NCBI GenBank assembly: GCA_934660965.1
Contig: CAKUIM010000007.1
Location: 1,532-65,531, forward strand
DNA length: 64,000 bases
Direction: 5' to 3'
Source: an uncultured Oscillospiraceae bacterium
Lineage (GTDB): Bacteria > Bacillota > Clostridia > Oscillospirales > Oscillospiraceae
This document shows, in pieces, positions 26,679 through 62,887 of this stretch (positions within the stretch are counted from its first letter, which is position 1; every line of letters starts with the position of its first letter). Position numbers and translations under genes: made by a program. A model generated the notes under the pieces. That model did not search any database. It was not told the DNA's origin and worked only from the letters and a program-made list of their open reading frames with translations.

Positions 26679-26696
26679 GGTGATTTCCTCCTAAAA

Positions 26697-41188: not shown

Positions 41189-41192
41189 CGCC

Positions 41193-43286: not shown

Positions 43287-43288
43287 TA

Positions 43289-43657
43289 ATGAAGAGCCTG
43301 GAAGAACTCAAAGCCATTCGTGAAAAGATGAAGAAGCAGATGGACCTGCGGGACAGCGACGACAGCAATATCCGCGTGGTCGTCGGCATGGCCACCTGCG
43401 GCATCGCCGCCGGCGCCCGCCCTGTGCTGTCCGCCTTCCTGGAGGAGGTTGACAAGCGGGGCCTCCAGAACATCACCGTCTCTCAGACCGGCTGCATCGG
43501 CGTGTGCCGTCTGGAGCCCATTGTGGAGGTCTTTGTCCCCGGCCAGGAGAAGGTCACCTACGCCAAGGTCAAGCCCGAGATGGTCCCCATCATCGTGGAG
43601 CAGCACCTGGTCAACCACAACGTGGTCACCGATTTCACCATCGGCGCTGCCGAATAA
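43289..43657 (+). CDS. Thioredoxin-like [2Fe-2S] ferredoxin domain protein (HndB type)
   Basis: 122 aa. ...VVVGMATCGIAAGA..., SQTGCIGVCRLEPIVEV. Confidence 0.8.
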   Translation: MKSLEELKAIREKMKKQMDLRDSDDSNIRVVVGMATCGIAAGARPVLSAFLEEVDKRGLQNITVSQTGCIGVCRLEPIVEVFVPGQEKVTYAKVKPEMVPIIVEQHLVNHNVVTDFTIGAAE

Positions 43658-43671
43658 GGAGGTAAGTTCAC

Positions 43672-45474: not shown

Positions 45475-45491
45475 GGGAAGGAGTGACGAAC

Positions 45492-47252: not shown

Positions 47253-47263
47253 TTCTGCTGTCC

Positions 47264-47300
47264 AAAACCCCCGGCAAAGCATGCTTTGCCGGGGGTTTTT
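47264..47300 (+). terminator. Rho-independent terminator after hydA
   Basis: AAAACCCCCGGCAAAGC-AT-GCTTTGCCGGGGGTTTT plus a T run. Confidence 0.88.
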
Positions 47301-47402
47301 CCTGCCCCGGGGGTCGTTGACGCGGGCAAAACGGGCGTGTATAATAGGCTCAAAAAGGCGGGTATTTTGTCCCCTGCGCCCCATAACGGAAGGAGCTTTG
47401 GC

Positions 47403-48455
47403 ATGAACACTCTGGTCATTGAAAAAAGCGCCCTGAAAAATAACGTCAGCCGCATCAAGGAGCTTGCCGGCTCCGCCTATGTCTACGCCAACCTCTCCGG
47501 CGACGGCCAGGGGCTGGGGGCAGCCCCTCTGGCCCTTCTCCTGCGGGACGAGGGGGTGAGCCGCTTCGCGGTGGACAGCGTGGAGTCCGCCCAGGCCGTG
47601 CGCAAGGCCGGCCTTGTGGATGAGGAGCTTCTCATGCTCCGCTCCCTCACCGATCGCGCCGCCCTGGAGCAGCTGGCCGACCTGAACGTCATCTGCTCGG
47701 TTGGCTCGCTGGAGGCGGGCATGGCCCTCAACGCCGTGGCGGAAAACCGCTCCACCGTCATCGAGGCCCACCTGGAGATCGACAGCGGCATGGGCTTCGG
47801 CGGCTTCCCCGCCGAGGAGCCGGAAAAGATTGTCACTGTGGTCCACAACCTGCCCAACGTGGCCTTCTCCGGCGTCTACACCCAGCTTGCCAGCACCAAG
47901 GCCCTCCCCGCCCAGCTGGAGCTGTTCCAGAAGGCGGTGGACGCCCTGCGTGAGGCCGGCTGCGAGACCGGCCTTGTCCATGCCGCCGGCTCCTTCGCTC
48001 TGCTCCACAGCGACCTGACCCATCTCGACGCCGTCCGGGCCGGCTCCGCCCTGCTGGGCCGCTGCCAGCGCACCCGGGGGGACGGCCTGACCCTTGTGGG
48101 CTACGGCGAGGCCGCGGTGGAGAGCGTGCGCTGGCTGCCCGCCGGCCACACCGTGGGCAACGAAAAGCGCAAAACCCTGCGCAAGCCCACCCGCACCGCC
48201 GTCATCCCGGTGGGCTATCAGAACGGCTTCGGGGTAGAGCCCCCGGCGTCCGGCCTCTGGGAGGCCCTGCGGCGGCTGCGCCGGCAGCACCGGCGCACCG
48301 TGCGCATCAACGGCCAGCGCGCCCGCATCCTGGGCTCCATCGGCGCAAGCCAGATCCTGGTCAACGTCACCTCCCTCAAGTGCTCCGAGGGGGACATCGC
48401 CACCTTCGACATCGAGCCTATCTTCGCCCGGGGCTTCCGGCGGGAATTCCGCTGA
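47403..48455 (+). CDS. Alanine-racemase-fold (Ala_racemase_N/C) family protein, apparently lacking the canonical PLP lysine
   Basis: Trimmed to MNTLVIEKSALKNNV after GGAGC. Overall colinear with Alr (…HLEIDSGMGFGGF…, …IPVGYQNGF…, …VRINGQRARILGSI…). The VVKANAYGHG site reads VYANLSGDGQG. Confidence 0.6.
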   Translation: MNTLVIEKSALKNNVSRIKELAGSAYVYANLSGDGQGLGAAPLALLLRDEGVSRFAVDSVESAQAVRKAGLVDEELLMLRSLTDRAALEQLADLNVICSVGSLEAGMALNAVAENRSTVIEAHLEIDSGMGFGGFPAEEPEKIVTVVHNLPNVAFSGVYTQLASTKALPAQLELFQKAVDALREAGCETGLVHAAGSFALLHSDLTHLDAVRAGSALLGRCQRTRGDGLTLVGYGEAAVESVRWLPAGHTVGNEKRKTLRKPTRTAVIPVGYQNGFGVEPPASGLWEALRRLRRQHRRTVRINGQRARILGSIGASQILVNVTSLKCSEGDIATFDIEPIFARGFRREFR

Positions 48456-48467
48456 AGGGGGCGCGCC

Positions 48468-48902
48468 ATGAAAGCAGTGGTCACCCGGGTAAAAAATGCC
48501 CGCGTTGAGATCGGCGGCGCGGTGTGCGGCCAGATCGGCCAGGGCCTTCTGGTGCTGCTGGGCGTCGGCCCGGAGGACACCGAGGCCACCGCCGATAAAA
48601 TGGCGGACAAGCTCTGCGGCCTGCGCATTTTCGAGGACGAAGCCGGCAAAATGAACCGCAATCTCGCCGCCGTGGGGGGCGCGCTGCTCATCATCAGCCA
48701 GTTCACCCTCTATGCCGACACCTCCTCCCGCCGCCCCGGCTTCTCCGGCGCCGCCCGGCCGGAGCTTGCCATCCCCCTCTACGAGCGCGTCATGGCATCG
48801 TGCCGCGAGCGGGGCTTTGCCGTGGAGCACGGACAATTCGGCGCGGATATGCAGGTCTTTTCCCAGAACGACGGCCCCGTCACCATCCTTCTGGAGCTAT
48901 AA
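48468..48902 (+). CDS. dtd: D-aminoacyl-tRNA deacylase
   Basis: 144 aa. MKAVVTRV..., LLVLLGV, SQFTLYAD, NDGPVTILLE. Confidence 0.92.
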   Translation: MKAVVTRVKNARVEIGGAVCGQIGQGLLVLLGVGPEDTEATADKMADKLCGLRIFEDEAGKMNRNLAAVGGALLIISQFTLYADTSSRRPGFSGAARPELAIPLYERVMASCRERGFAVEHGQFGADMQVFSQNDGPVTILLEL

Positions 48903-48944: not shown

Positions 48945-50978
48945 ATGAAATACGCCCGCCTCTTCGCGCCCCTGCAGGTCAACTCCATGAAGCTGAAAAA
49001 CCGCATCTGCATGACCGCCATCGACCTCAACTACTGTCCCGACGACGGCGGCGCCGTCTCTGAGCGGCTCAAGGCCTTCTACTTCCGCCGGGCGGAGGGG
49101 GGCGCGGGGCTGCTGACCATCGGCGGCTGCCGCATCGACGAGCACGGCGCGGGCTATGACATGGACTTTGTAAGCATCGCCGACGACCGCTACATTCCCG
49201 GCCACCGGGAGCTCACCGACGGCATCCACGCCCGGGGGGCCAAGGTCTCCCTCCAACTCTACCACGGCGGGCGCTACGTGGCCGCCCGGGGCCTGCGCGA
49301 TGGGAACGTCCCCTTTGCCCCCTCCCCGGTCTACTCCACCTTCACCCACGAAACCGCCCCGGAAATGTCCCGGGAGGACATCCAGGCCGTCATCGCCTCC
49401 ACCGCCGCCGCAGCCGCGCGGGCCAAATCCGCCGGGTACGACGCCGTGGAGCTGCTGGGCTCCGCCGGCTATCTCATCTGCCAGTTCCTCTCGCCGCTGA
49501 CCAACCTGCGCACCGACGAGTACGGCGGCAGCCTCGAAAACCGCCTGCGCTTCCCCCGGCAGCTCATCGCCGCGGTGCGCGCCGCCGTGGGGCCGGACTT
49601 CCCCCTCATCATGCGCATGGCGGGCAACGACTTCATGCCCGGCTCCAACACCCTGCCCGACACCGTGGGCTTTTCCCGGGAGTATGAGAAGTGCGGCATT
49701 GACATGCTCAGCGTCACCGGCGGCTGGCACGAGACCCGCGTCCCCCAGCTGCCCGGCGAGGTGCCCGACACCTGCTACGCCTACCTTGCCCAGGCCATCC
49801 GGGAGGCGGTGTCCATCCCCGTCATTGCCGCCAACCGCATCCGCACCCCCTCCGAGGCGGAGACCGTTCTGGCCCTTGGCCAGGCGGACTGCGTGGGCAT
49901 GTGCCGCACTCTGCTCGCCGACCCCGACTGGCCCCGCAAGGCCATGGCCGGGGAGGAGACGGAAATCCGCCCCTGCGTGGGCTGCAACCAGGGCTGCCTT
50001 GCCGCCACCTTCTTCTGCAAGCCGGTGCAGTGCCTGGTCAATGCCGACGCCGGGCGGGAGGCTGCCCCCGCCGCCCCCCGTGCCGGGGCGGGCAAGTCAC
50101 TGCTGGTCATCGGCGGCGGCCCTGCCGGACTGGAGGCCGCCCTGCGCGCCGCCCGCTCTGGCTGGCGAACCGAGCTGTGGGAGAGCAGTCCCCGCCTGGG
50201 CGGCCAGCTCCGCCTGGCCGGCGCGGCCCCGGGAAAAGAGGATTTTCTCGCCCTTATTCCCTACTACGAGACCATGCTGAAACAATACGGCGTCACTGTG
50301 CGCCTGGGCACGGAGGCCGACGCCGCCGCCATCGCCGCCGCCGGGTTCGACGCGGTGATCGTGGCCGCCGGCGCCCATCCCCGCGCCCTTCCCATGGACC
50401 TTCCCGGCCCGGACATCGTCTCCGCCTGGGACGTGCTCTCCGGCGCTGTCATCCCCGGAAAGCACGTGGTGGTGCTGGGCGGCGGCGCTGTGGGCTGCGA
50501 AACGGCCCAGTATCTCGCCCGCCAGGGCGCCCTCAACACCGAAAAGCTCTTCTTCCTGTCCGTCCACCACGCCGAGCCTCCCCAGCGCCTGGAGCAAATG
50601 CTCAACCATAGCGCCCGCACCGTCTCCATTGTGGAGGTGGCCCCCAAGGTGGGCAGCGGCTTCGACCCGGGCTGCGCCTGGCCGGTGCTCAAGGACCTCA
50701 AGCGCCTGGGGGTGGCGCAGTACACCCGGGCCTCCATTGTCTCCGCCGCAGACGGCTGCGTCACCGTGGAGCACGGCCCCGAGGGGGAGCGCCAGCGCCT
50801 TACCCTCCCCTGCGATACCCTCATCCAGGCCGTGGGCTCGGTGAGCAATACCGCACTCATGGCTTCCCTGGGTGAGGCGGGCATTCCCGCCGTGGCCATC
50901 GGGGACTGCGCCAAGACCGGCCGCGTGCTGGACGCCGTCCGCGCCGCTGCCGACGCCGTGGCCGCCCTCCCGGTCTGA
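48945..50978 (+). CDS. OYE-like FMN oxidoreductase fused to an FAD/NAD(P)-binding domain (2,4-dienoyl-CoA reductase / enoate reductase family)
   Basis: 677 aa. ...LKNRICMTAI..., QLYHGGRY, a Cys cluster CVGCNQGCLAATFFCKPVQC, then the Rossmann motifs LVIGGGPAGLEAA and VVVLGGGAVGCE. Confidence 0.8.
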   Translation: MKYARLFAPLQVNSMKLKNRICMTAIDLNYCPDDGGAVSERLKAFYFRRAEGGAGLLTIGGCRIDEHGAGYDMDFVSIADDRYIPGHRELTDGIHARGAKVSLQLYHGGRYVAARGLRDGNVPFAPSPVYSTFTHETAPEMSREDIQAVIASTAAAAARAKSAGYDAVELLGSAGYLICQFLSPLTNLRTDEYGGSLENRLRFPRQLIAAVRAAVGPDFPLIMRMAGNDFMPGSNTLPDTVGFSREYEKCGIDMLSVTGGWHETRVPQLPGEVPDTCYAYLAQAIREAVSIPVIAANRIRTPSEAETVLALGQADCVGMCRTLLADPDWPRKAMAGEETEIRPCVGCNQGCLAATFFCKPVQCLVNADAGREAAPAAPRAGAGKSLLVIGGGPAGLEAALRAARSGWRTELWESSPRLGGQLRLAGAAPGKEDFLALIPYYETMLKQYGVTVRLGTEADAAAIAAAGFDAVIVAAGAHPRALPMDLPGPDIVSAWDVLSGAVIPGKHVVVLGGGAVGCETAQYLARQGALNTEKLFFLSVHHAEPPQRLEQMLNHSARTVSIVEVAPKVGSGFDPGCAWPVLKDLKRLGVAQYTRASIVSAADGCVTVEHGPEGERQRLTLPCDTLIQAVGSVSNTALMASLGEAGIPAVAIGDCAKTGRVLDAVRAAADAVAALPV

Positions 50979-51064: not shown

Positions 51065-51096
51065 AAAGCGCCCGAACCATGCGGTTCGGGCGCTTT
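51065..51096. terminator. Bidirectional terminator hairpin (twin of 29350-29381)
   Basis: AAAGCGCCCGAACC-ATG-CGGTTCGGGCGCTTT followed by CCTTTTCCCCTTTTT. Lies between convergent genes. Confidence 0.8.
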
Positions 51097-51109: not shown

Positions 51110-51967
51110 TTACTTCTTGTACTCCGCGAGGGACCGGCGGGTGATGCCCAGCATCTCCCGGGCCTCGGCGGCGGTGGCGGGCTCGCGGCCCACCAGGCGG
51201 CCAAGGGCGGCGGCCCGCTCCACCAGCTGCACGTTGGTGGCCTTCACGCCGCGCTCCAGGTAGAGGTTGTCCTCCAGGCCCACGCGCACGCCGTCGGCGC
51301 CCAGGGCAAGGCCGGTGAGGAGCATGGGCAGATGATCCTTGCCGATGCCGGTGACGCTCCAGGTCCAGCCCTCGGGCAGCTTGCTGTGGAGGTACTGCAA
51401 ATTCTCAACGCTGCCCTCCATAGCGCCCAGCACACCCAGCACGAACTGCACGTGGCAGGGGGTCTTGAGCACGCCCTTCTTCGCATAGGCGATGGCGTTG
51501 CCCAGCATGCCGTAGTCAAAGACCTCGATCTCGGGCTTGATGTCCAGCTCCTGGGTGAGCTTGCCGCACTCCACCAGAAAATCGGGGCTGTTCTCGAAGA
51601 TGAGGCCCAGGGACCAGTTGAAGGTGCCCGCGTCGTAGGAGCACACCTCGGGGCGCAGGGCCTTGAGGTGGGCAAGGCGCTCCTCGGTGACGTAGGAGCC
51701 GCCGGAGGTGGTCAGATTCACAATGATGTCCACCCCGGCCTTCTCGGTGGCCTCCTTCACGGCCTCGAAGGCATCCCGGAAGTACCCGGCGTCCATGGTG
51801 GGCTTGCCGTCCTTGTCGTGGACGTGGATGTGGACCATAGAGGCGCCGGCCTTGGCCACCGCCACGGTCTCTTCGGCGATCTCCTCGGCGGTGATGGGAA
51901 TGTAGGGGGAGAGCTCCTTAGAGCCGGCGGTGCCGGTGATGGCGGCGGAAATGAGCAGTTTTTTCAT
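51110..51967 (-). CDS. Beta-keto acid cleavage enzyme (BKACE / DUF849; 3-keto-5-aminohexanoate cleavage enzyme family)
   Basis: 285 aa. ISAAITGT, HIHVHD (two Zn His), PEIEVFD, GVRVGLEDNLY (Zn Glu). Overall colinear with Kce as I remember it. Substrate not assignable from sequence. Confidence 0.85.
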   Translation of the reverse strand: MKKLLISAAITGTAGSKELSPYIPITAEEIAEETVAVAKAGASMVHIHVHDKDGKPTMDAGYFRDAFEAVKEATEKAGVDIIVNLTTSGGSYVTEERLAHLKALRPEVCSYDAGTFNWSLGLIFENSPDFLVECGKLTQELDIKPEIEVFDYGMLGNAIAYAKKGVLKTPCHVQFVLGVLGAMEGSVENLQYLHSKLPEGWTWSVTGIGKDHLPMLLTGLALGADGVRVGLEDNLYLERGVKATNVQLVERAAALGRLVGREPATAAEAREMLGITRRSLAEYKK

Positions 51968-52001
51968 GATCTTGTCTCCTTTTGGGTTTCTCTGTGCGCC
52001 C

Positions 52002-53210
52002 TTAGCGGCGCAGGTTCTCGATGAGGGTGGTGACGCCGTGGCCGCCGCCGCAGCAGGAGGAGAACAGGCCGTAACGGCCGCCCCGACGCTCCAGCTCCTT
52101 CATGGCGAACAGGCAGATCCGGGCACCGGAAGCGCCGTTGGGATGGCCGAAGGCGATGGCGCCGCCGTTGGGGTTCCAGTTGGCCTGGTCGATCTTCTCG
52201 CCGCTCTGGTGCTCCATCTCCTTGATGACGGACAGGTTCTGGGCGGCGAACGCCTCGTTGCACTCGAACACGTCCAGGTCGCTCACCTTCAGGCCCGCGC
52301 GCTTGAGGGCCAGCAGGTTGGAGTAAGCAGGGCCGATGCCCATCAGGCGGGGCTCCACGCCGTAATCGGCGCCGCACACCCACCGGGCATAGGGCTCGTA
52401 GCCCAGCTCCTTCGCCTTCTCGGCGGTCATCATCAGCACAAACGCAGCGCCGTCGTTCCGGCCGGAGGCGTTGCCAGCGGTGGTCACGCCGCCTTCACGG
52501 ACAGCGCGCAGCTTGGTGAGGCCCTCCATGGTGGTCTCGCCGCGGACGTGCTCGTCCTCCGCGAAAATCTTGTCCGGAGCCTTCTTGCCGCCCTTGATGG
52601 TGATGGGCGCGATCTCATCCTTGAAGTAGCCCTTGGCAATGGCGCTGGCGGCACGCTGCTGGCTGCGCAGAGCGAACTCGTCGCACTCCTCGCGGGTGAT
52701 GCCCCACTTGGCCGCCATGGTGTCGGAAACCTCGATCATGCTGATGTTCTGCTCGGGAGTGGGGGCCAGCTTGGAGGGGATGGGCAGAGGCGGAATAGCC
52801 TTGTAGGGCTGGATGGAGGTGGGGAACTTCACCACCATCTGGCTATATGCCTCCATGCCGCCGGCGATCATCACGTCGGCCTCGCCTGCCAGCATCTTCC
52901 ACGCCGCGTGGTTGATGGAGTCGATGGCGCTTCCGCACTGCATCTCAACGTAGGACGCGGAGGTCTCCAGCGGAAGCCCCGCGGCCAGCACCACATAACG
53001 GGCCGGGCCGCCAGCCTGGGCATCGCAGAAGGCGGAGCCGCAGAACAGCGAGTCCACCTTGCCGCCCCGCTCGTAAATCTTGGAGCGCTCCACCAGGGCC
53101 TTCACCGTCATGGCGCCCAGGTCGGAGGCATAGATGTCCCGCAGGCTGCCGCCCATCCGGCCAAAGCCCGTGCGCATGCCGTCTACAAATACGATCTCTC
53201 GCTTTTCCAT
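52002..53210 (-). CDS. Acetyl-CoA C-acetyltransferase (thiolase II family)
   Basis: 402 aa. ...VEMQCGSAIDSI (active Cys), NASGRNDGAA, NPNGGAIAFGHPNGASG, CCGGGHG. Confidence 0.88.
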   Translation of the reverse strand: MEKREIVFVDGMRTGFGRMGGSLRDIYASDLGAMTVKALVERSKIYERGGKVDSLFCGSAFCDAQAGGPARYVVLAAGLPLETSASYVEMQCGSAIDSINHAAWKMLAGEADVMIAGGMEAYSQMVVKFPTSIQPYKAIPPLPIPSKLAPTPEQNISMIEVSDTMAAKWGITREECDEFALRSQQRAASAIAKGYFKDEIAPITIKGGKKAPDKIFAEDEHVRGETTMEGLTKLRAVREGGVTTAGNASGRNDGAAFVLMMTAEKAKELGYEPYARWVCGADYGVEPRLMGIGPAYSNLLALKRAGLKVSDLDVFECNEAFAAQNLSVIKEMEHQSGEKIDQANWNPNGGAIAFGHPNGASGARICLFAMKELERRGGRYGLFSSCCGGGHGVTTLIENLRR

Positions 53211-53275
53211 CTTTCTTGTTCCTTTCCCGCCGGGCCGTCTCCTGCCCGGATTTGTTATTTTTATAACAATGCGTC

Positions 53276-53304
53276 TTGACTTTTCTTGAATTTTTTGTTA
53301 AAAT
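53276..53304 (+). promoter_or_regulatory. Sigma-A type promoter for the sigma-54 activator gene
   Basis: TTGACT, 17 nt, TAAAAT. Confidence 0.5.
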
Positions 53305-53352
53305 AGTCTGTAATTGTGAGTGTTTTGCCTGATTTCCAAGGAGGTCTTTGCT

Positions 53353-54753
<1,401 letters not shown>

Positions 54754-54771
54754 TCGGCCCGGGGTCGGAGA

Positions 54772-54813
54772 AGCTCTGCCGCCTGCGGTATGCGGGCGGC
54801 AGAGCTCTTTTAT
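54772..54813 (+). terminator. Rho-independent terminator after the activator gene
   Basis: AGCTCTGCCGCC, an 11-nt loop, GGCGGCAGAGCT, followed by CTTTTAT. Confidence 0.7.
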
Positions 54814-54832
54814 GCCGCCGGCCGGGCCCCGG

Positions 54833-55726
54833 TCAGTGTGGCAGAACGGGGTTGGGCCCCAGGCGGTTGCCCTTCTCGTCATAGAGATAGAAGCCCGCGC
54901 CGGACTTTTTCCCGCAGAAGCCCGCCTGCACCATCTTGCGCAGCAGCGGGGCCGGACGGTACTTGGAGTCGCCCAGCTGGCTGTGAAGGACCTCCATCAC
55001 CGCCAGCTCCACGTCGATGCCCGCCATGTCGACGAGCTCCAGGGGACCCATGGGATGGTTGCAGCCGAACTTCATGCCGTTGTCCACATCCTCCACGGCG
55101 CCGATCCCCTCGTCCACAATCTGGATGGCTTCGTTGATCATGGGGTCGAGCATACGGTTAACAATAAAGCCGGGCATGTCCTTGGATACAATCATCACCT
55201 TGCCAAGCTTCGCCCCCACGGCGCGGGCCGTTTCCAGCGTCTCCTTGGAGGTGCGCAGGCCGCAGATAATTTCCAGCAGCTTCATAGCCGGCACCGGTGA
55301 GAAGAAATGCATGCCCACAAACCGCTCCGGATGGCTCACTGCACCGGCAAGGGCGGTGAGGGAGAGCGACGACGTGTTGGACGCGATCACCGCCTCCGCC
55401 GGGCAGATTTCCGCCACGGCAGAGAGCACGGCGCGCTTGGCCTGCTCGTTTTCATAGATGGCCTCGATGACAAGCTCGGCGTGGGCGCAGCGGGAGAGGT
55501 CAGCTGCGGCAGTCAGGCGGGCAAGGCAGCCCGCCCGCTCCTCGGCGGTCATGGCCCCCTTATCTACCCGGCGCTGAAGGCGGCCGGCAATGCCCGTCAC
55601 CGCCCGCTGGAGGGCGGCGGTGTTTGTATCGTTGAGGGTCACTTCAAAGCCGCTCTGCAGGGCCACCTGAGCGATGCCGCTGCCCATCAGGCCGCTGCCG
55701 ATGACAAAAATGTGGTTCACTTCCAT
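54833..55726 (-). CDS. hbd: 3-hydroxybutyryl-CoA dehydrogenase
   Basis: Start trimmed to [20 protein letters not shown] after [50 protein letters not shown]. Confidence 0.88.
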
Positions 55727-55739
55727 GCGCTGCACCTCC

Positions 55740-56723
55740 TCAAATCAACTTATGGTAGCGCAGCAGCTCCAAAAGGCCCTTGTCCCGGAAGGCCTGAAGC
55801 TCAGCGTTGTCCCGTCCCGTCCCGGGCTCCCGCCGGGACATGATGTCCAGAATCTCGGCGGGCCAGTCGGTCTCAAAGTGCTTGTGGACCTCCTCGGGCC
55901 AGCGGTCCCAGGAGCACAGCTCGCCCAGCCATTTCTCGCTGGACTGGCCCATGGGGCCGCACATGGTGTTTTTGAAGCCGCCGTCGCCGCCGGTGAGCTG
56001 ATAGACCATATAGGGACCCATCAGGGCGTAGCGCAGGCCGGGGCCGAAGGTAAAGGCGGTGTCCAAATCCTCCAGGCTGCATACGCCGCTGGAGACAATC
56101 TTGGCACTCTCCCGGAACAGGGCAATCATCAATCGGGTGCCCACATAGCCCGGGGAGTTCTTGCGCAGCACCACCGGCTTTTTGCCAACGGCGCGGAAGA
56201 AGGTCAGGGCCTGATTGAGATAGTTCTCCCCCACCTTGGGGCTGATGACGATCTCCACCAGGGGCAGCAGGTAGACCGGCAGATAGGGGTGCGCGCCGAT
56301 GACCCGCTCGGGGTGAGAGGCGTCCCGGGCAATCTCGCTGATCATGATGCCCGAGGTGCTGGAGGTGATAACGGCGTCGTCGCGGCACTCGGCCTCGATG
56401 CCCGCCAGGATGGTGCGCTTGAGCTCCAGATTCTCCGGGCCGTTCTCCAGAATGAGGTCGGCCCCCTCCACGGCGGCGCGCATGACGGTTGTGTACACCG
56501 GCAGGCCCTCAAGCTCCGCGCGCTGTGCGGCGGTGATGGCACCGTTTTCCTCAAAGAAGGCAAGGCCCTGGGAAATCAGCCCCTTGGCACGGTCCAGCGC
56601 CTGGGGCGCGGTGTCGTACAGGGTAATTTCCCGCACGCCGTGGATGAGCAGATGGGTGGCCCAGCCCGCGCCGATGAGGCCCGAGCCGATGATGCCGACG
56701 TGGTAATCCTTATAGTCTTTCAT
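55740..56723 (-). CDS. 3-hydroxyacyl-CoA-dehydrogenase-fold enzyme of the L-carnitine dehydrogenase (LcdH)/lambda-crystallin type
   Basis: 327 aa. [21 protein letters not shown], ...[12 protein letters not shown]..., [32 protein letters not shown], and a C-terminal extension unlike Hbd. Confidence 0.65.
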
Positions 56724-56735
56724 GGATAGTCCCCC

Positions 56736-57440
56736 TTAAATGCCCAGATAGGCGTTGCGCAGCTGCTCATCCGCCAGCAGCTGGTCGGAGGTGCCGCTCA
56801 TCACGTTCTGGCCGATCTCAATAACGTAGGCCCGGTTTGCGATCTCCAGGGAGGACATGACGTTCTGCTCCACCAGGAGGATGGTCATACCCGTCTTGTT
56901 GAGCTCCACCAGGGAGTCGAAGATGTCACCCACCACAATGGGTGCAAGACCCAGGGACGGCTCGTCGAGCATGAGAATCTCCGGGCACTGCATCAGACCC
57001 CGGGCGATGGCGCACATCTGCTGCTCGCCGCCGGACATGGAGTTTGCCATCTGGTTGCGCCGCTCATAGAGCTTGGGGAACATGGTAAAGCAGAAGTCCA
57101 GGTTCTCCTTGCGGCGCTTGCGGGCCTCCGGCAGGTAGGAGCCCACGAGAAGGTTGTCGTACACGCTTAAATAGGGGAAGAGTTTGCGCCCCTCGGGCAC
57201 CTGGATGATGCCCTTTTTCACCCGCTCGTAAGCGGGCATCTTGGAGATGTCCTCCCCCTTGAACTCGATGCTGCCGTTCATGAGGCGGGTGGTGCCGGAA
57301 ACGGTATTGATGGTGGTGGTCTTGCCCGCGCCGTTGTTGCCCAGAAGGGCCACGATCTCTCCCTCTTTTACTTCCAGGGAGACGCCGCGCAGCGCTTCCG
57401 AGCGGCCGTAATTCACATGGATATCATTTACTTTCAGCAT
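56736..57440 (-). CDS. ABC transporter ATP-binding protein (LivF-like)
   Basis: Trimmed to MLKVNDIHVNYGRSEAL. GNNGAGKTT, MSGGEQQMCAIARGL, LMLDEPSLGLAP. Overlaps the upstream ATPase gene by 17 nt. Confidence 0.88.
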   Translation of the reverse strand: MLKVNDIHVNYGRSEALRGVSLEVKEGEIVALLGNNGAGKTTTINTVSGTTRLMNGSIEFKGEDISKMPAYERVKKGIIQVPEGRKLFPYLSVYDNLLVGSYLPEARKRRKENLDFCFTMFPKLYERRNQMANSMSGGEQQMCAIARGLMQCPEILMLDEPSLGLAPIVVGDIFDSLVELNKTGMTILLVEQNVMSSLEIANRAYVIEIGQNVMSGTSDQLLADEQLRNAYLGI

Positions 57441-58170
57441 GCTTTTTCTCCCCAAAATACGATTGAATGACCAGCGGGTTCTGTGCCACCTCCGCCGGGG
57501 TGCCCTCGGCAATGAGCCTGCCCTGGTTGAGCACATACATCCGGTCGGAGATGTTCATGATGACCCGCATGACGTGTTCGATGATGATGACGGTGACGCC
57601 GCTTGCCCGGATGTCCTGCACCAGCTTCATAAAGGCCGGGTGCTCCTTGGGGTTGACGCCGGCTGTGACCTCGTCGAGCAATATGAGCTTGGGCTCGGTG
57701 GCCAGGGCCTTGGCGACCTCCATGCGCTTCATCTGGGTCAGGGTCAGGTTGTTGCCGCGCACGTCCTTGATGTCATAGAGGCCGGTGAACTTGAGCACCT
57801 CCTCGGCCTTGCGCTGGGCGTCCTCCTTCTTGGGGCAGCGCACGAAGGCACCCACCATCACGTTTGCCAGCACCGTCATGTTGGTAAAGGGCTGCACCAG
57901 CTGATAGGTCCGGCCGATGCCCAGCTTGCACACCTGGCTCGCCTTCTTGTTCTGGATTTCCTCGCCGTTGAAGATGATCTTGCCGGAGGTCACGGGGAGG
58001 GCGCCGGAGAGCATGTTGAACAGGGTAGTCTTGCCCGCGCCGTTGGCGCCGATGATGCCCAGGATCTCCCCTTCGTTTGCGTGGATGGTGATGTCCTCAT
58101 TGGCGGTCAGGCCGCCGAACTTTTTGGTCACATGCTGGACATCCAGGATGACCTTCTGATTGTCAGCCAT
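57424..58170 (-). CDS. ABC transporter ATP-binding protein (LivG-like)
   Basis: 248 aa. GANGAGKTTLFN, ...LTQMKRMEVAKALATEPKLILLDEVTAG. Confidence 0.88.
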   Translation of the reverse strand: MADNQKVILDVQHVTKKFGGLTANEDITIHANEGEILGIIGANGAGKTTLFNMLSGALPVTSGKIIFNGEEIQNKKASQVCKLGIGRTYQLVQPFTNMTVLANVMVGAFVRCPKKEDAQRKAEEVLKFTGLYDIKDVRGNNLTLTQMKRMEVAKALATEPKLILLDEVTAGVNPKEHPAFMKLVQDIRASGVTVIIIEHVMRVIMNISDRMYVLNQGRLIAEGTPAEVAQNPLVIQSYFGEKKHAESK

Positions 58171-59182
58171 TGCCGCTGCCTCCCTTCACTGCCTGGGTAG
58201 TCTTTTTCCGGCTGCGCAGGGCGGCAATGCGCTCGCCCAGCCAGGGGAACACGCCGCGGGGCATGAAATACACCACCAGCATCAGAATCGCGCCGTAGAT
58301 GGCCGTGGAAAGGCCCGCGAAGGAGGTGCCCAGGGCAGTGCGCAGCGACTCGTTGATGGGGTAGAGCACCAGGGTGCCGAACACGGGGCCCCAGACGGTG
58401 TCGATGCCGCCCACCACCGCGTAGAGCATGATCTCGATGGAGAAGCCGTAGCTCAAAACGCGGGTGGGATCCAGGAACATGATGAACATCACGTAGAAGC
58501 CGCCGCCCATGGCGGACAGGGCCGCGCTGATGAACTGGGCCTTGAGCTTGTAGAACATGGTGTCCACGCCCAGGGCCTCCGCCGCATTCTGGTTGGTATT
58601 GATGGCGGAAAAGTAGTAGCCGGTGCGGGTGTTCTTGATGCGGATGGAAAGGCCGATGACAAACAGCAGCAGCACCGCGATGATATAGTAATAGCTCACC
58701 TTGCTGTCAAACTGCATGTTGGCAAAGCCGCCCCGCCAGGGGATGCGCAGGCCCATGGACGCGCCGGTCTCGTAGCCGAAAAGCTTCTGCTCGTTGAGGA
58801 TGATGATCTGGAACACGAACAGCAGTGCCACGGTGGACAGGGTGTAGTAGGAGCCCTGGAGCTTGAAGCAGGGGTAGCTGAGCAGCACGGACAGCACGCC
58901 GGCGATGAGCGCCGCGATGATAAGCCCCAGCCAGGGGGAGATGCCGTTCTGCTTGAAGAGCAGGCCTGTAATATAGCCGCCGATGCCGATGTACACGCCG
59001 TTGCCCATGGCGAAGCGGCCGATGAAGCCGCCCAGGATGTTCCAGCTGGCCGCCAGGAAGGTGAACATCAGCGTCATAACCAGGGTGTGGACGGTATACT
59101 GGGTCTTGACAAACAGGGGGATGATGAGCACAGCAACCGCAAACAGCCCCAGCCATTTATACTGGTCAAAAATTTTCTTCAC
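58163..59182 (-). CDS. Branched-chain-amino-acid-type ABC permease (LivM-like)
   Basis: 339 aa multi-TM. Position and composition typical of the HAAT family. Confidence 0.8.
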   Translation of the reverse strand: MKKIFDQYKWLGLFAVAVLIIPLFVKTQYTVHTLVMTLMFTFLAASWNILGGFIGRFAMGNGVYIGIGGYITGLLFKQNGISPWLGLIIAALIAGVLSVLLSYPCFKLQGSYYTLSTVALLFVFQIIILNEQKLFGYETGASMGLRIPWRGGFANMQFDSKVSYYYIIAVLLLFVIGLSIRIKNTRTGYYFSAINTNQNAAEALGVDTMFYKLKAQFISAALSAMGGGFYVMFIMFLDPTRVLSYGFSIEIMLYAVVGGIDTVWGPVFGTLVLYPINESLRTALGTSFAGLSTAIYGAILMLVVYFMPRGVFPWLGERIAALRSRKKTTQAVKGGSGNG

Positions 59183-59212
59183 TCGAATGCCCTCGCTTTC
59201 TCTCGGCGCCCA

Positions 59213-60097
59213 TCAGCTGGTCTCCCGGCCCAGAATGCCGGACGGCCGGAAGAGCAGGATCAGGATAAACAGCACGAACACCAGCAGCGACGCATAGGCG
59301 TCCGTCCACAAAATGCCGCCGAACTTTTCGATGAGGCCCACGATCAGGCCGCCCAGCAGCGCGCCGGGGACGCTCCCCTTGCCGCCCAGGACCACGATGA
59401 TGAAGCACTTGGTGCCGAAGGCGCTGCCCACCGTAGGCGACACCGCGGAGTTGGGCACCAGCAGCGAGCCGGAAACGCCCACCAGGCCCAGGCCGATGCC
59501 GAAGGCCAGGCTGTAGATGCTTTTATGGTTAATGCCCATGAGGGAGGCCACGTGCCGGTTCTGGGCGGTCGCCCGGAGGGCGCGGCCAAACTCTGTGCGC
59601 TGAATGACGATGTACAGGATGATGGTGCAGGCCAGGGCGATGGCAAAGGAGATCAGCCGGGGGACGGACACGATCATGTTGCCCAGCTCAATGGTCTTGC
59701 TGGTGTAGCGGGTCTGGACCGCCAGAATATTGGAGGAGAAAATTACAGTGGCCATGTTGGACAGGAAAATGCCAAGGCCCGAGGTAAAGAGCAGGATGGA
59801 CAGCGGCTCGCGGGACTCGTCCTTGTCCAGCATGCGGTTAAAGACAAAGCGCTGCAGGCAGTAGCCCACGGCAAACATAATAGGACCGGTGATGAAGATG
59901 GAAAGATAGGGGTCGATGCCGAAGTTGATGACGGACAAAAAGGCGATGTACATGCTCACCATCAAAAACTCGCCATGGGCCCAGTTGACGATGCGCATGA
60001 CGCCGAAGGCCAGGGACAGGCCCACCGCGATGGTGGAGTACACGCCGCCTACCATGATCCCGTCGATCAGGGTTTGGAAAAACAGCGATAAAGTCAT
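59213..60097 (-). CDS. Branched-chain-amino-acid-type ABC permease (LivH-like)
   Basis: 294 aa, MTLSLFFQTLIDGIMVGGVYSTIAVGLSLAFGVMRIVNWAHGEF, the classic LivH N-terminus. Confidence 0.85.
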   Translation of the reverse strand: MTLSLFFQTLIDGIMVGGVYSTIAVGLSLAFGVMRIVNWAHGEFLMVSMYIAFLSVINFGIDPYLSIFITGPIMFAVGYCLQRFVFNRMLDKDESREPLSILLFTSGLGIFLSNMATVIFSSNILAVQTRYTSKTIELGNMIVSVPRLISFAIALACTIILYIVIQRTEFGRALRATAQNRHVASLMGINHKSIYSLAFGIGLGLVGVSGSLLVPNSAVSPTVGSAFGTKCFIIVVLGGKGSVPGALLGGLIVGLIEKFGGILWTDAYASLLVFVLFILILLFRPSGILGRETS

Positions 60098-60184
60098 ATA
60101 CCGGAATCCTCCGTTCTCTAATTAAGGGGGGTGGGGCCGCCCCGTGGGGCGGCCCCGGATCACAGCTTCTTTTCTTTCGGGGGC

Positions 60185-61504
60185 TCAGCGGTCAGCGTAA
60201 GCGGGGATGGGGAACACCACGGGGCTCTCGTCCAAGGGGAAGATGATCTTCCAGCGGCCGCCCAGCACCTGGGCGTACTGCATGCCGGACTTGGAGTTCT
60301 GGTTGTAGCGGCCGTCAAAGTCCTCGTACTTGATGCCGCCGAAGGTGGCGTGGAACATCAGGGCGCGGTCGCCCACGGGGATGTCGGTCTCGTCGATGGC
60401 GGTGGCAATGGCCTCGCGGTCAGCGCTGCCGGCCCGGGCAATGGCCTCCAGCAGGGCATACATGCCCATCCAGCCGTTGGCGTAGGGCTCGTTGGCGGTG
60501 GTGTTGCCGGTCTCCTTGACAAAGCGGGCACACCACTCCTTGGCCTCGTCGCTCATGGCGTCCTCGTCATAGATCCAGGAGCCGGAGACCATGATGTACT
60601 CGGCAGCCTCGCCGGCCTGGCTGGTGTAGTCGTCGCCCAGGAAGCCGCCGCCGTAGGCCAGAACGGGGATGTCCACCTTGTACTCCTTCATCTGGCGGGT
60701 GAAGAGCAGGGCGTCGTTGAGGAACATAACGGGGATGATGAGCTCGGCGTCGGTCTGCTTGATCTTGTTGAGGACGCTGGAGAGATCGGTGGAGTTGTTG
60801 GCAAAGGACTCACCGAACACCACCTCGGCGCCGGCGGCGGGCAGAATGCTGTCCTTGAAGGTATTGTAGGCGCCCTGGCCGTAGTCAGTGCCCTCGTAGA
60901 GGATGGCCACCTTGGTGATGGGGGTGCCGCGCAGCTCGCCCAGCCACTGCAGGAGCTTGACATAGGTGGACGCGCCGTCCTTATCGCCCAGGTTGGAGCG
61001 GAAGACGTAGTTGCTGTCCTCGGAGAGGATGACGTCGGACACGGCGTTGGTGACCATGAAGGGGGTCTTGTACTTGATGGCGATGGGGGCGATGGCGGCG
61101 GCGGTGCCGCTGTTGTAGGTACCGATGATGGCGGAGACCTTCTCGTCGTTGATCAGGCGCTCGGCTTCGGTCACGCCTGTGTCGGCAACGCCGGCGGTGT
61201 CACCCTTCACCAGCTCGATCTTCATGCCGTTGAGGGTGTCGCCGTAGTGGTTCATAAAGTCCTCCAGAGCATGCTCATAGCCCACCATCTGGCTCTCGCC
61301 GAAGTAGGAGCTGGAGCCGGAGAAGGGGAGCAGGACGCCGATCTTGACGACCTTTTCCTCATCGCCGCCGCCCTGGGGAGCCTGGGACTCGGTGCCCGCG
61401 TTGGAGGGGGCAGGGGTCTGGGTCTCTTTGGAGCCAGTACCGGCGCAGGCCGCCAGGGACAGGCACATCGCCAGGGCAAGGATCAGTGCAGTCAGCTTTT
61501 TCAT
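60185..61504 (-). CDS. Type-1 periplasmic-binding-fold ABC substrate-binding lipoprotein (LivJ/K family); ligand unknown
   Basis: Trimmed to MKKLTALILALAMCLSLAACAG (lipobox) after AAGGAGG. ...KIGVLLPFSGSSSYFG..., IIGTYNSG. Confidence 0.85.
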   Translation of the reverse strand: MKKLTALILALAMCLSLAACAGTGSKETQTPAPSNAGTESQAPQGGGDEEKVVKIGVLLPFSGSSSYFGESQMVGYEHALEDFMNHYGDTLNGMKIELVKGDTAGVADTGVTEAERLINDEKVSAIIGTYNSGTAAAIAPIAIKYKTPFMVTNAVSDVILSEDSNYVFRSNLGDKDGASTYVKLLQWLGELRGTPITKVAILYEGTDYGQGAYNTFKDSILPAAGAEVVFGESFANNSTDLSSVLNKIKQTDAELIIPVMFLNDALLFTRQMKEYKVDIPVLAYGGGFLGDDYTSQAGEAAEYIMVSGSWIYDEDAMSDEAKEWCARFVKETGNTTANEPYANGWMGMYALLEAIARAGSADREAIATAIDETDIPVGDRALMFHATFGGIKYEDFDGRYNQNSKSGMQYAQVLGGRWKIIFPLDESPVVFPIPAYADR

Positions 61505-61590
61505 GGGAATCCTCCTTAAATTTTTATGCATACAGGGCTCTCGCCCGGTTTGCCTTTTGATAGACGCACACAGGAGCGCCGCAGGGGATT

Positions 61591-62631
61591 TTATACGCCG
61601 TTTTCCAGCAGGATGTCGAAGAAGGGCAGGGCCTCCTCCGGCGTCCACACCTGGGTGTGGGCCTGGGCCAGCCTGACCAGGCCCACCACCATGTCGTTGT
61701 AGGGGGTGGCGATGCCGCACTCCCGGCCCGCCCGGCACACCTGGCCGTTGATGAAGTCGATTTCGCAGGGGCGGCCCTTCTCCAGGTCCTGGAGCATGCT
61801 GGCCTTGAGCGCCCGGTGCTTGGTGCCCCAGAGCTGATGATAGTAGGCCAGCTTGTCCTCCACGGTCTCGCCGGGGCGGATCTCCCGCTCCTCATAGTCG
61901 TTGCCGTCCACCACGGTGAGCTTCACGCCCTTGCCGTGGGCCACCCGCACGCACTCGTCGCCGATGCGCGCCAGGGCCAGCATGGCATTCTCCCGGTCCA
62001 GCACGCCGCCGTAGTCGCAGCCCAGGGCGGCGGACATGCCGCTGGCGGTGGCGTTGATGAGCACCTTGGTCCAGCGGGTGCCCAGGAGCTTGTCGGTGAT
62101 GTCGCACCGGCCCGCCTGGAAGAGGAATTGCTGCACCGCCTTGAGGCGAGGGGTCACCTCGCCATTGCACTCGCCCACCTCGGTGAGCATACCGGTGGCC
62201 ATGTAGTCGCCGCCGGAGGTGCAGCGCACCACGCCGGGGGCCTCCCAGGTGGCGCCGAAGAGGACGATGCCGCCCATGGTGCGCTCCTGCCCCACAATCT
62301 CGGCCACTAGCATCTCGGGGATGCCGTTTTGCAGGGTGCAGACGATGCTGTTCTCGTGGAGGTGACCCTCCAGCTGGGCAAGGGCCTGGCGGGTACCCGT
62401 CTGCTTGCACAGCAGGAACACCAGGTCGTAGGTCTCGGTGAGCTCGTCGGGGGTCAGTGCGGAGACCGGCACGCTCAGGTCAAGCCCGCCTGTGATGGTG
62501 GCGCCCCGGGTGCGCAGGGCCTCCACATGGGGGATGTAGGTGTCGATCAGATCGATCTGCACGCCGCTGCGGGTCAGCAGCGCGCCCAGCACCGTTCCGA
62601 TGGAGCCTGCGCCCATAATTGCAGCCTTCAT
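61591..62631 (-). CDS. Ketopantoate-reductase (PanE/ApbA) family NAD(P)-dependent 2-oxo/hydroxy-acid oxidoreductase
   Basis: 346 aa. MKAAIMGAGSIGTVLG Rossmann start, ...TLQNGI..., TRWTKVLINA, SMLQDLEKGRPCEIDFINGQV. Confidence 0.7.
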   Translation of the reverse strand: MKAAIMGAGSIGTVLGALLTRSGVQIDLIDTYIPHVEALRTRGATITGGLDLSVPVSALTPDELTETYDLVFLLCKQTGTRQALAQLEGHLHENSIVCTLQNGIPEMLVAEIVGQERTMGGIVLFGATWEAPGVVRCTSGGDYMATGMLTEVGECNGEVTPRLKAVQQFLFQAGRCDITDKLLGTRWTKVLINATASGMSAALGCDYGGVLDRENAMLALARIGDECVRVAHGKGVKLTVVDGNDYEEREIRPGETVEDKLAYYHQLWGTKHRALKASMLQDLEKGRPCEIDFINGQVCRAGRECGIATPYNDMVVGLVRLAQAHTQVWTPEEALPFFDILLENGV

Positions 62632-62744
62632 ATCGGTTCTTTTTCCTCCTCTTTCGTGTCGCTGTTTGTCTCGGCATCACTCGCCGGGAGGGCTGCCGCA
62701 GCCGCCCGCCGGGGTGATGCTCTGCCCTCTATTATTGCAATGGG

Positions 62745-62760
62745 CGTGCCAGCTTTTTCC
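62745..62760 (-). promoter_or_regulatory. Sigma-54 (-24/-12) promoter of the PanE-like/Liv/LcdH-like/hbd operon
   Basis: Minus strand reads TGGCACGCCCATTGCA, an exact match to TGGCAC-N5-TTGCA. About 113 nt upstream of ATG 62631. An EBP with GAFTGA is encoded 8 kb away in the same island. Confidence 0.8.
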
Positions 62761-62827
62761 GCCCCTTGAATTTCTCACAATTTCTTTGCATTCTAAGTCA
62801 GATTTTCCGTCAAAATCTTCACAACTC

Positions 62828-62887
62828 GTCTAACGATTAGACAGTTGCGCATAAACGCTTAGACAGTTGTAGACAGTTACTGTCTAA
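62828..62887. promoter_or_regulatory. Upstream activator sequence candidates (repeated TTAGACAG motifs and palindromes)
   Basis: GTCTAACGATTAGAC palindrome (62828-62842). TTAGACAGTT at 62837 and 62859, GTAGACAGTT at 62869. Perfect palindrome TAGACAGT-T-ACTGTCTA at 62870-62886. All lie 70-130 nt upstream of the -24 element. Confidence 0.6.

Follow-up and report, generated by a model that had tools for sequence, protein, structure and literature searches.

A gene cluster of an uncultured Oscillospiraceae bacterium that combines a BKACE enzyme, a Liv-type importer and a sigma-54 promoter, and its possible role in the catabolism of a 3-hydroxy acid

The stretch of DNA analysed here, referred to as the window, comprises 64,000 nucleotides of an uncultured gut Oscillospiraceae bacterium (GenBank assembly GCA_934660965.1, contig CAKUIM010000007.1, positions 1,532 to 65,531) and has a G+C content of about 65%. 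It carries a cluster of eleven genes that includes a gene for a cleavage enzyme of beta-keto acids (BKACE). Eight of these genes form an operon on the minus strand, in which neighbouring genes overlap or are spaced by 4-87 nt. The operon starts with the gene for a PanE/ApbA-like NAD(P)H oxidoreductase (61591-62631; Pfam ApbA and ApbA_C), and continues with the genes for a Liv-type ATP-binding cassette (ABC) importer, namely a Peripla_BP_6 substrate-binding lipoprotein (PBP; 60185-61504; 177 bits), two BPD_transp_2 permeases of the LivH type (59213-60097) and the LivM type (58163-59182), and two ATPases of the LivG type with a BCA_ABC_TP_C domain (57424-58170) and of the LivF type (56736-57440). 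The last two genes encode a 3HCDH-family dehydrogenase resembling L-carnitine dehydrogenase (LcdH-like; 55740-56723; Pfam 3HCDH_N and 3HCDH) and an Hbd-like 3-hydroxyacyl-CoA dehydrogenase (54833-55726; Pfam and NF004474). Convergent with this operon, the plus strand encodes a sigma-54 enhancer-binding protein (EBP; 53353-54753), and divergent from the latter gene, the minus strand encodes a thiolase (acetyl-CoA C-acyltransferase; 52002-53210) as the upstream partner of the BKACE (51110-51967). The reading frames of the window were chosen by their third-position G+C content (GC3) and by gene calls on L035, a contig from a Hadza gut metagenome that carries an identical cluster. The start positions of the PBP and Hbd-like genes were taken from the L035 calls. 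The LivH-type permease was supported by a gene call and Pfam match in L035 and by a protein of 89% identity in the related locus L039, and the LivM-, LivG- and LivF-type genes were supported by L035 gene calls and by their counterparts in L039. All eleven genes had been listed in a first-pass annotation of the window, and all of them were found to be intact at these positions.

The BKACE matched the Pfam family PF05853 over the complete profile (positions 1-274 of 274) with a score of 306.2 bits (cut-off 24.8; E-value 2.6e-91). Its structure was predicted with AlphaFold2 from an alignment of database homologues (pLDDT 93.9, pTM 0.92), and a Foldseek search with this model returned Kce, which cleaves 3-keto-5-aminohexanoate, as the best match (2Y7F; TM-scores 0.89/0.92, rmsd 1.8 Å), followed by 3NO5, 3C6C, 3LOT, 3FA5 and 8RIP. 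Kce, which is 37% identical, was also the top match among the NCBIfam models and PDB sequences. Since the phmmer alignment of the two proteins contains no gaps in the N-terminal 75 residues, their numbering coincides in this region. As had been noticed before, the enzyme possesses the HxH and Glu ligands of a zinc ion; these residues, His46, His48 and Glu232, match His46, His48 and Glu230 of Kce, and Arg228 and Asp233 match Arg226 and Asp231. In a set of 38 BKACE homologues with identities of 56-85%, all these residues, as well as Glu146/148, were unchanged in every protein. Inactive members of the BKACE family (the 'G7' group) lack at least one zinc-binding or catalytic residue. Judged by these residues, the catalytic apparatus of the BKACE is intact.

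None of the curated functional families was reached by this enzyme. It scored 270 bits against the Kce model (cut-off 382), 195 bits against 3-oxoadipate:acetyl-CoA acetyltransferase (NF053568; cut-off 350), 188 bits in two pieces against the triacetate/3,5-dioxohexanoate type (NF053538; cut-off 430) and 187 bits against the Kal-Kce fusion model (cut-off 725). Ten relatives likewise reached no curated family, with scores of 252-304 bits against the Kce model. In Kce, Glu14 binds the 5-amino group of the substrate, and this residue corresponds to Trp16 in the triacetate lyase of Clostridium scatologenes (CsTAL) (PMC10470551). The equivalent residue in the BKACE of the window is Ala, while the 38 homologues have Ala (19), Gly (15), Met (3) or Gln (1) there; neither Glu nor Trp occurs in any of them. 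In addition, the closest BKACE clade has His where Kce has Arg50. In a comparison of active-site residues, as proposed in the first-pass annotation, the enzyme thus differed from Kce and CsTAL. On sequence grounds, the BKACE belongs to a new and uncharacterised clade with an active-site signature of its own.

The top NCBIfam matches of the LcdH-like dehydrogenase were carnitine dehydrogenases. However, its scores of 183.6 bits for NF005471 and 194.2 bits for NF005716 missed the respective cut-offs of 414 and 592, and only the N-terminal ~250 residues were aligned. The nearest solved structures were FHMPC dehydrogenase and lambda-crystallin/L-gulonate 3-dehydrogenase, and its similarities place the enzyme in the free-acid branch of its family. 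The BKACE therefore falls outside the functional families of Kce, triacetate lyase and the 3-oxoadipate enzyme, and this dehydrogenase outside that of carnitine dehydrogenase. Orthologues of the LcdH-like protein, with identities of 46-76%, are encoded alongside the BKACE in L039, L031, L036 and L028, and other 3HCDH dehydrogenase subtypes are used in L033, L038 and L004. The Hbd-like protein scored 377.5 bits against the 3-hydroxybutyryl-CoA dehydrogenase model NF004474 (cut-off 408). The thiolase reached TIGR01930 with 382 bits (cut-off 240), missed all acetoacetyl-CoA thiolase equivalogs, and is 84% identical to its counterpart in L039 and 62-65% identical to those in L004 and L033. For the PanE-like protein, the TIGR00745 subfamily was reached (177.6 bits, cut-off 141), and every equivalog model was missed. 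In Papillibacter cinnamivorans, Flavonifractor sp. An306 and L006, homologues of this protein with identities of 42-44% are encoded next to BKACEs of the 45-52% clade, and some of these loci have no LcdH-like gene. It is therefore likely that the PanE-like enzyme either provides another way of forming the beta-keto acid or modifies it. Lastly, the PBP shows a signal peptide with a LAAC lipobox in its translation. It scored 71 bits against the LivJ/LivK model NF011933 (cut-off 477), had 8WCH as its best solved relative (96 bits), and is 33% identical to the PBP of L031. An attempt to deduce the ligand class from solved binding proteins was uninformative for Liv-type and Opp-type proteins alike.

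The PanE-to-Hbd operon is preceded by the sequence TGGCACgcccaTTGCA on the minus strand (62736-62751), about 105 nt upstream of the PanE-like gene. As previously annotated, this is an exact TGGCAC-N5-TTGCA sigma-54 promoter, with exact -24 GG and -12 GC elements at the correct spacing, and it is the sole exact match to the consensus in the 64 kb of the window, where 0.08 matches would be expected. Further upstream on the same strand (62837-62887) lies a probable enhancer, or upstream activating sequence, with candidate EBP sites. It contains four AACTGTCTAA/TTAGACAGT copies (AACTGTCTAA three times in direct and once in inverted orientation), a number that was not attained in any of 100 shuffled sequences, and two palindromes, TAGACAGT-A-ACTGTCTA and ACTGTCTAA-N3-TTAGACGAGT. 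Repeat analysis of this region gave the repeat families D1/D2 and the inverted pairs I4, I5 and I7. The repeats are located 85-135 nt upstream of the -24/-12 element, which is the position expected of an enhancer, and we infer that the EBP encoded in the cluster binds to them.

The domain structure PAS-AAA+(GAFTGA)-HTH that had been proposed for the EBP was borne out by a Sigma54_activat match of 235 bits, by the GAFTGA motif in the translation and by the PAS and HTH_8 domains. The same is true for its start codon, TTG at 53353, which is located 8 nt after a GGAGG sequence and is to be preferred over the upstream GTG at 53320. A sigma-70-like promoter for the activator gene, TTGACT-17-TAAAAT, is present at 53276-53304 of the plus strand (10 of 12 consensus positions, with TG before the -10 element). 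The best curated match of the EBP was PrdR (393 bits, cut-off 795), all equivalog cut-offs were missed, and the protein is 61% identical in L039. With an EBP gene beside the target operon, a -24/-12 promoter and upstream repeats, the system resembles sigma-54/EBP-controlled fermentation operons of Clostridiales such as that of PrdR (PMC6615313), from which it differs in that its activator reaches no curated family. The text of the survey of Clostridiales sigma-54 regulons in the same paper makes no mention of BKACE clusters of this kind.

The first-pass annotation had described the whole locus as a sigma-54-controlled island. This view applies to the PanE-to-Hbd operon, but not to the thiolase and BKACE genes, upstream of which no -24/-12 element and no AACTGTCTAA site was found, either in the window or in the syntenic L039. 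Instead, a perfect palindrome read from the sequence, TTGTTAT-TTTT-ATAACAA (53252-53269), lies between the divergent activator and thiolase genes and overlaps an extended -10 element, TGtTATAAA, on the minus strand. The TGnTATAAA element is a candidate sigmaA promoter from which the thiolase and BKACE genes are probably transcribed separately, and the palindrome is a possible operator for a second regulator of these two genes. The predicted thiolase leader also includes a GC hairpin, CCGGGC-N8-GCCCGG (53230-53249), which is terminator-like on the plus strand. An Rfam scan of the whole window gave zero matches, and this hairpin is therefore not a known riboswitch. Two other hairpins probably serve as bidirectional terminators, one with a 16-bp stem between the convergent Hbd-like and activator genes (54772-54806), and a GC-rich one with T-runs on both strands between the BKACE gene and the convergent gene downstream of it (51068-51093).

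The functional coherence of the three transcription units, which had been proposed before, was supported by the comparison with related loci; those relatives that bear a name belong to uncultured Oscillospiraceae, among them Candidatus Enterenecus stercoripullorum. L039 has the same order of eleven genes from the PanE-like gene to the BKACE gene, with proteins that are 61-89% identical (81% for the BKACE). This exact arrangement is rare, as it was seen in two lineages. Of greater weight are five other architectures, revealed by mapping of the gene neighbourhoods, in which BKACE orthologues (74-84% identical) are encoded inside an operon that also holds the genes of an ABC importer and of a 3HCDH-type dehydrogenase. 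In L031 and L090 (BKACE 84%), the gene order is crotonase, 4HBT thioesterase, PBP, LivHMGF, LcdH-like dehydrogenase, BKACE and Hbd-type dehydrogenase, preceded in L031 by electron-transfer flavoprotein (Etf) genes. L038 (82%) combines a response-regulator-type EBP and an Opp-type ABC importer with crotonase, Hbd, thiolase, dehydrogenase, BKACE and TauE. The order CtfAB, LcdH-like dehydrogenase, Hbd-type dehydrogenase, thiolase, BKACE and Opp is found in L091 and L092 (82-83%), beside genes for Etf, crotonase, an acyl-CoA dehydrogenase (ACAD), a phosphotriesterase-family protein (PTE) and MaoC. In L033 (74%), a sensor kinase and a response-regulator-type EBP are followed by Opp, a dehydrogenase and the BKACE, flanked by Hbd-type, 4HBT and Etf genes and by two thiolase genes, a short-chain dehydrogenase/reductase (SDR) gene, CtfAB and ACAD. 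L004 and L093 (75-77%) have an EBP, a cyclase, Opp, an Hbd-type dehydrogenase, the BKACE, family III CoA-transferases, a PTE, and thiolases or SDRs.

Common to these clusters is a core in which the BKACE is joined by an ABC importer and a dehydrogenase of the 3HCDH type. This core is accompanied by thiolase and/or Hbd-type genes in all clusters examined, and it is usually under sigma-54/EBP control. Indeed, consensus -24/-12 elements precede the BKACE operons of L031, L033 (three promoters), L038, L004, L005, L012 and L014, and L092 carries rpoN beside the cluster, about 8 kb from the BKACE gene (18712-19895). Sigma-54 control is therefore, as far as these elements indicate, a conserved theme of BKACE operons. 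The rpoN of L092 was called as two adjacent reading frames, one for the activator-interacting domain (107 aa) and one for the core-binding and DNA-binding domains (291 aa), for which a frameshift, a split gene or an error in the assembly could be responsible. Around the core, most genes belong to C4/butyrate pathways or encode CoA-transferases, thioesterases and hydrolases (cyclase, PTE and metallo-beta-lactamase-type hydrolases, MBL), and no deaminase, betaine-handling or glycerate kinase gene was found around it in the clusters examined. The lack of a thioesterase and a CoA-transferase that had been reported for the window was reproduced in a tblastn panel, which detected no window homologue of a thioesterase, CoA-transferase, Etf, crotonase, acyl-CoA dehydrogenase or cyclase, but this does not extend to the relatives, which carry 4HBT (near the BKACE gene in L031, L033, L004 and L090), CtfAB or family III CoA-transferases beside the BKACE.

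A metagenome scan for further close relatives mostly returned the 45-52% BKACE clade. Two named isolates have sigma-54-driven clusters of this clade, L014 (Lawsonibacter hominis; 8538-18110), which additionally includes a butyrate-kinase-like gene, Ptb, an M24/creatinase-type hydrolase, a major facilitator superfamily (MFS) gene and SDRs, and L009 (Flavonifractor sp. An306; 4597-12833), to which a PanE-like gene and a gene of the acetyl-CoA hydrolase/transferase family are added. Both isolates would offer culturable entry points to BKACE modules. Another clade, with BKACEs of 61-64% identity, is very prevalent in the gut (L028-L030 and L036-L037; BKACE at 10001-10867); its member P0056 was listed in 836 collection blocks, and P0041 includes Candidatus Galloscillospira stercoripullorum. 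Here, cyclase, MBL and BKACE genes lie beside a fused CoA-transferase gene, an MFS gene, an AraC regulator gene, an Opp-type ABC importer and an LcdH-like gene, and a thiolase gene follows in both; in L028-L030, genes for a cupin and for a protein of the acetoacetate decarboxylase family are present in addition. The anaerobic phloroglucinol pathway, whose enzymes are PGR, DPGC, TfD and TAL, has been described in C. scatologenes, Eubacterium ramulus and Flavonifractor plautii (PMC10470551). We considered whether this clade (P0056 and P0041) corresponds to the published F. plautii phloroglucinol cluster, but found no support for this idea, as the clade has no PGR, its cyclases are far removed from DPGC, and its dehydrogenases share only about 30% identity with TfD. 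Lactonase-like PTE genes occur in three BKACE designs (L004, 12224-13282; L093, 13047-14012; L091/L092, ~240-1200), which hints that some relatives may start from a lactone or another cyclic precursor.

Several genes near the cluster do not appear to be part of it. The first-pass annotation had included the convergent neighbour of the BKACE gene, which encodes an Fe-S flavoenzyme of the old yellow enzyme (OYE)/FadH type (48945-50978, plus strand; 677 aa; assigned by Pfam and NCBIfam). This protein scored 455 bits against BaiCD (cut-off 825) and 436 bits against the long-form bilirubin reductase (cut-off 750). Its gene adjoins the BKACE gene only in this species (L001 and L002), and none of the other clusters contains it. 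Elsewhere, a FadH-type neighbour occurs only in L093 and is 35% identical, so that a conserved partnership was rejected. The OYE/FadH gene therefore probably lies outside the module. To its left are dtd, the alanine racemase gene and a HydABC-type hydrogenase cluster, as seen in L001, and to the right of the sigma-54 promoter are mutL and the citrate synthase gene, as seen in L035. In the hydrogenase region (39408-47252), the gene of an Fe-only hydrogenase-like sensor protein precedes a HydABC-type set with NuoE-like and NuoF-like subunits, a HydA of 589 aa and small HATPase and PHP proteins. A psuG/psuK-type pair is located at 25758-27776, in which an Indigoidine_A gene (453 bits; pseudouridine-5'-phosphate glycosidase-like) is combined with a PfkB kinase gene whose product bears an N-terminal winged-helix domain. 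The remaining surveyed genes of the window are housekeeping genes (V-type ATPase, Pst, topoisomerase IV, psuG/psuK, DegV, YmdB and serA/serC), and the Pfam survey of the window genes revealed neither rpoN nor lysine-fermentation genes. Very long antisense or out-of-frame reading frames were seen at 45471-48836 and many other places, for example one of 1121 aa opposite hydA/alr; because of the G+C content of 65% these are artefacts, and the GC3 filter eliminates them.

Taken together, we consider it probable that the cluster serves the inducible catabolism of a small free 3-hydroxy carboxylic acid. From the gene content we infer in which order the steps take place and in which direction the flux runs. 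An inducer would be recognised by the EBP's PAS domain, upon which the EBP, bound to the AACTGTCTAA repeats, would switch on the sigma-54 promoter of the PanE-to-Hbd operon. The acid would then be taken up by the Liv-type ABC system, and its 3-hydroxyl group would be oxidised by the NAD-dependent LcdH-like dehydrogenase to give a beta-keto acid; the PanE-like enzyme might act at this stage too, for example on the other enantiomer or on a second hydroxyl or keto group. In the next step, the zinc-dependent BKACE would convert the beta-keto acid and acetyl-CoA to acetoacetate and an acyl-CoA at no ATP cost. Finally, the thiolase and the Hbd-like enzyme would pass the C4-CoA intermediates to acetate/butyrate fermentation, and the NADH from the dehydrogenase step would be re-oxidised by Hbd. 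This scheme follows established BKACE chemistry (PMC10470551, PMC11961710, bioRxiv 10.1101/205583). It shares its two-step outline with the oxidative 2-deoxy-D-ribonate pathway of Pseudomonas simiae and Paraburkholderia, in which an SDR dehydrogenase and a BKACE likewise convert a 3-hydroxy acid via a beta-keto acid to acetoacetate and an acyl-CoA, with a dedicated transporter and a requirement for thiolase (bioRxiv 10.1101/205583). However, that pathway employs an SDR as the dehydrogenase, an MFS transporter and, for its glyceryl-CoA branch, a glycerate kinase, for which there is no counterpart here.

As for the substrate, the C4/butyrate genes in the neighbourhood and the absence of deaminase, betaine-handling and glycerate kinase genes from it suggest that the acyl-CoA released is a common intermediate of fermentation. 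Candidates are 3-hydroxybutyryl-, acetoacetyl-, butyryl- or propionyl-CoA, none of which would need a dedicated downstream enzyme. Because Kce is the nearest relative and its amine-binding Glu has been lost, a neutral C5-C6 3-hydroxy acid is favoured, either a short 3-hydroxyalkanoate or a C6 acid that carries oxygen at C5. Our best guess, which we offer only tentatively, is a C6 acid of the 3,5-dihydroxyhexanoate or 3-hydroxy-5-oxohexanoate type, and a short 3-hydroxyalkanoate would be the next most likely substrate. The documented BKACE substrates include 5-hydroxy-beta-ketohexanoate, 3,5-dioxohexanoate, beta-ketohexanoate and beta-ketopentanoate (PMC11961710, bioRxiv 10.1101/205583).

Several observations weigh against this interpretation. 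The partners of near-identical BKACEs vary, since their dehydrogenases are 27-54% identical and represent three 3HCDH subtypes, and the binding proteins differ between clusters, being of the Liv type or the Opp type. Accordingly, different species may import different compounds. Moreover, Liv- and Opp-type PBPs, together with the SBP_bac_3 sensor kinase of L033, are more typical of amino-acid-like ligands than of simple hydroxy acids, which argues for caution. The chemistry usually performed by the PanE family concerns 2-oxo acids, and this leaves the role of the PanE-like enzyme unexplained. In addition, the window offers no CoA-transferase for acetoacetate, and, as the thiolase and BKACE genes have no sigma-54 promoter, they may not be co-regulated with the importer operon in this organism.

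The 3-hydroxy acid module has to be weighed against several other explanations. The strongest of these, although we regard it as unlikely, is a salvage of phloroglucinol intermediates, in which (S)-3-hydroxy-5-oxohexanoate or a close relative would be imported from polyphenol degraders, oxidised by the dehydrogenase to triacetate, and cleaved by the BKACE, acting as a triacetate acetoacetate-lyase, to acetoacetate and acetoacetyl-CoA. The latter product would account for the adjacent thiolase and Hbd genes. The phloroglucinol pathway is the only validated system with a cyclase, a 3HCDH, a BKACE and a thiolase (PMC10470551), and it shares with the present cluster a 3HCDH-type dehydrogenase, a Kce-like BKACE without Glu14 and a thiolase, in butyrate-forming Clostridia. 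Some relatives of the cluster even possess cyclase-family hydrolases, as PF04199 genes are present in the operons of L004/L093 (75-77%) and L028/L036 (61-64%), accompanied by PTE or MBL hydrolases and, in L093, by SDRs. Furthermore, papers that refer to the published BKACE screen name 3,5-dioxohexanoate as one of the substrates of BKACE15 from Paracoccus denitrificans (PMC11961710). On the other hand, these cyclases are only about 32% identical to DPGC over half of their own length, the dehydrogenases are about 30% identical to CsTfD/FpTfD (31-34% to TfD for the window enzyme), and the BKACE remained at 188 of the 430 bits required by the triacetate-type model, with Ala at position 14, where the Trp of CsTAL was found in none of the 38 homologues. 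The window also lacks a cyclase or cyclohydrolase and a PGR-type SDR reductase, and its ABC importer, which implies the uptake of a linear acid, would be without precedent for 3-hydroxy-5-oxohexanoate.

Anaerobic catabolism of L-carnitine or a related 4-substituted 3-hydroxybutyrate, by which the LcdH-like enzyme would form dehydrocarnitine and the BKACE acetoacetate and betainyl-CoA, appears quite improbable. Like the pathway of Pseudomonas and other Pseudomonadota, which comprises L-carnitine dehydrogenase, BKACE and betainyl-CoA thioesterase, the cluster pairs an LcdH-family dehydrogenase, with carnitine dehydrogenases as its top NCBIfam matches, and a BKACE with uptake genes. A small residue at position 14 could leave space for a trimethylammonium group, the 4HBT thioesterases of L031, L033, L004 and L090 could supply the third component of the pathway, and L004/L093 have CaiB-family CoA-transferases. 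However, the dehydrogenase scores are less than half of the curated cut-offs (194 of 592 and 184 of 414 bits), and tblastn and the Pfam survey found no 4HBT thioesterase, no BCCT/OpuC-type transporter (OpuAC) and no glycine-betaine reductase or methyltransferase gene in the window. In L031, L033 and L090 the 4HBT gene accompanies Etf, crotonase or Hbd-type genes, and in L004 it is located at the contig end, beside an activator gene. The present cluster further differs in belonging to a strict anaerobe, in its sigma-54/EBP control and in having the thiolase and Hbd within the module. Chance juxtaposition of a Liv importer for branched-chain amino acids, ordinary butyrate genes and an unrelated orphan BKACE is very improbable and was largely refuted by the synteny. 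While the Liv family classically imports branched-chain amino acids and the thiolase-BKACE unit has its own non-sigma-54 promoter, the PBP reached just 71 of 477 bits for the LivJ-type model, the thiolase and Hbd-like proteins stayed below the canonical ThlA/Hbd cut-offs, and the BKACE is found inside transporter/dehydrogenase operons in at least five independent architectures. The least probable alternative is a Kce paralogue that acts on 3-keto-5-aminohexanoate produced by kam/kdd genes elsewhere in the genome. The BKACE does share with Kce, its best match at the level of NCBIfam, PDB sequences and fold, the TIM barrel, the zinc ligands, the catalytic Glu, Arg and Asp, and the proposed reaction of a beta-keto acid with acetyl-CoA to acetoacetate and an acyl-CoA in a butyrate-forming anaerobe. 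However, it missed the Kce cut-off (270 of 382 bits), has Ala in place of the 5-amino-binding Glu14, which was absent from all 38 homologues, and is not accompanied by kamA, kamDE (aminomutase), kdd (3,5-diaminohexanoate dehydrogenase) or kal (ammonia-lyase) in the surveyed window genes or the related clusters examined. Its conserved partners are instead a hydroxy-acid dehydrogenase and an importer, neither of which is required in the lysine pathway, and its beta-keto acid is proposed to derive from an imported hydroxy acid via the 3HCDH-type dehydrogenase. The earlier view that the cluster fits neither the lysine nor the carnitine paradigm, with the Kce and LcdH cut-offs missed, Glu14 replaced, and no kam/kdd/kal genes or betaine transporter in the window, is therefore upheld.

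BKACEs allow anaerobes to convert a free beta-keto acid to a CoA thioester without spending ATP. To our knowledge, only few of their physiological substrates have been established, namely the lysine fermentation intermediate, dehydrocarnitine, triacetate, probably ketodeoxyribonate and, according to a curated model, 3-oxoadipate. Neither this strategy nor the diversity of the BKACE family is new. What is new, as judged from the compared loci, is that in gut Oscillospiraceae a BKACE clade is linked in a conserved manner to regulation by sigma-54 and an EBP and to importers of the Liv or Opp type, and that there is a modular family of BKACE clusters with interchangeable dehydrogenases and hydrolases. 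The clade resides in conserved inducible uptake operons, usually beside a complete set of genes for the conversion of acetoacetyl-CoA to butyryl-CoA. It is conceivable, although the odds are somewhat against it, that animal-gut Oscillospiraceae use sigma-54-controlled BKACE modules with swappable importers, dehydrogenases and ring- or lactone-opening hydrolases as an unrecognised entry to butyrate, and that the version in the window uses a nutrient new to BKACE chemistry. If this were true, the BKACE of the window would have a new substrate specificity, marked by Ala or Gly at Kce position 14 and by His instead of Arg at position 50. The cluster is a directly testable target for the discovery of a new BKACE substrate and possibly of an overlooked route to butyrate, and knowing this substrate would give a new specificity class for BKACE engineering.

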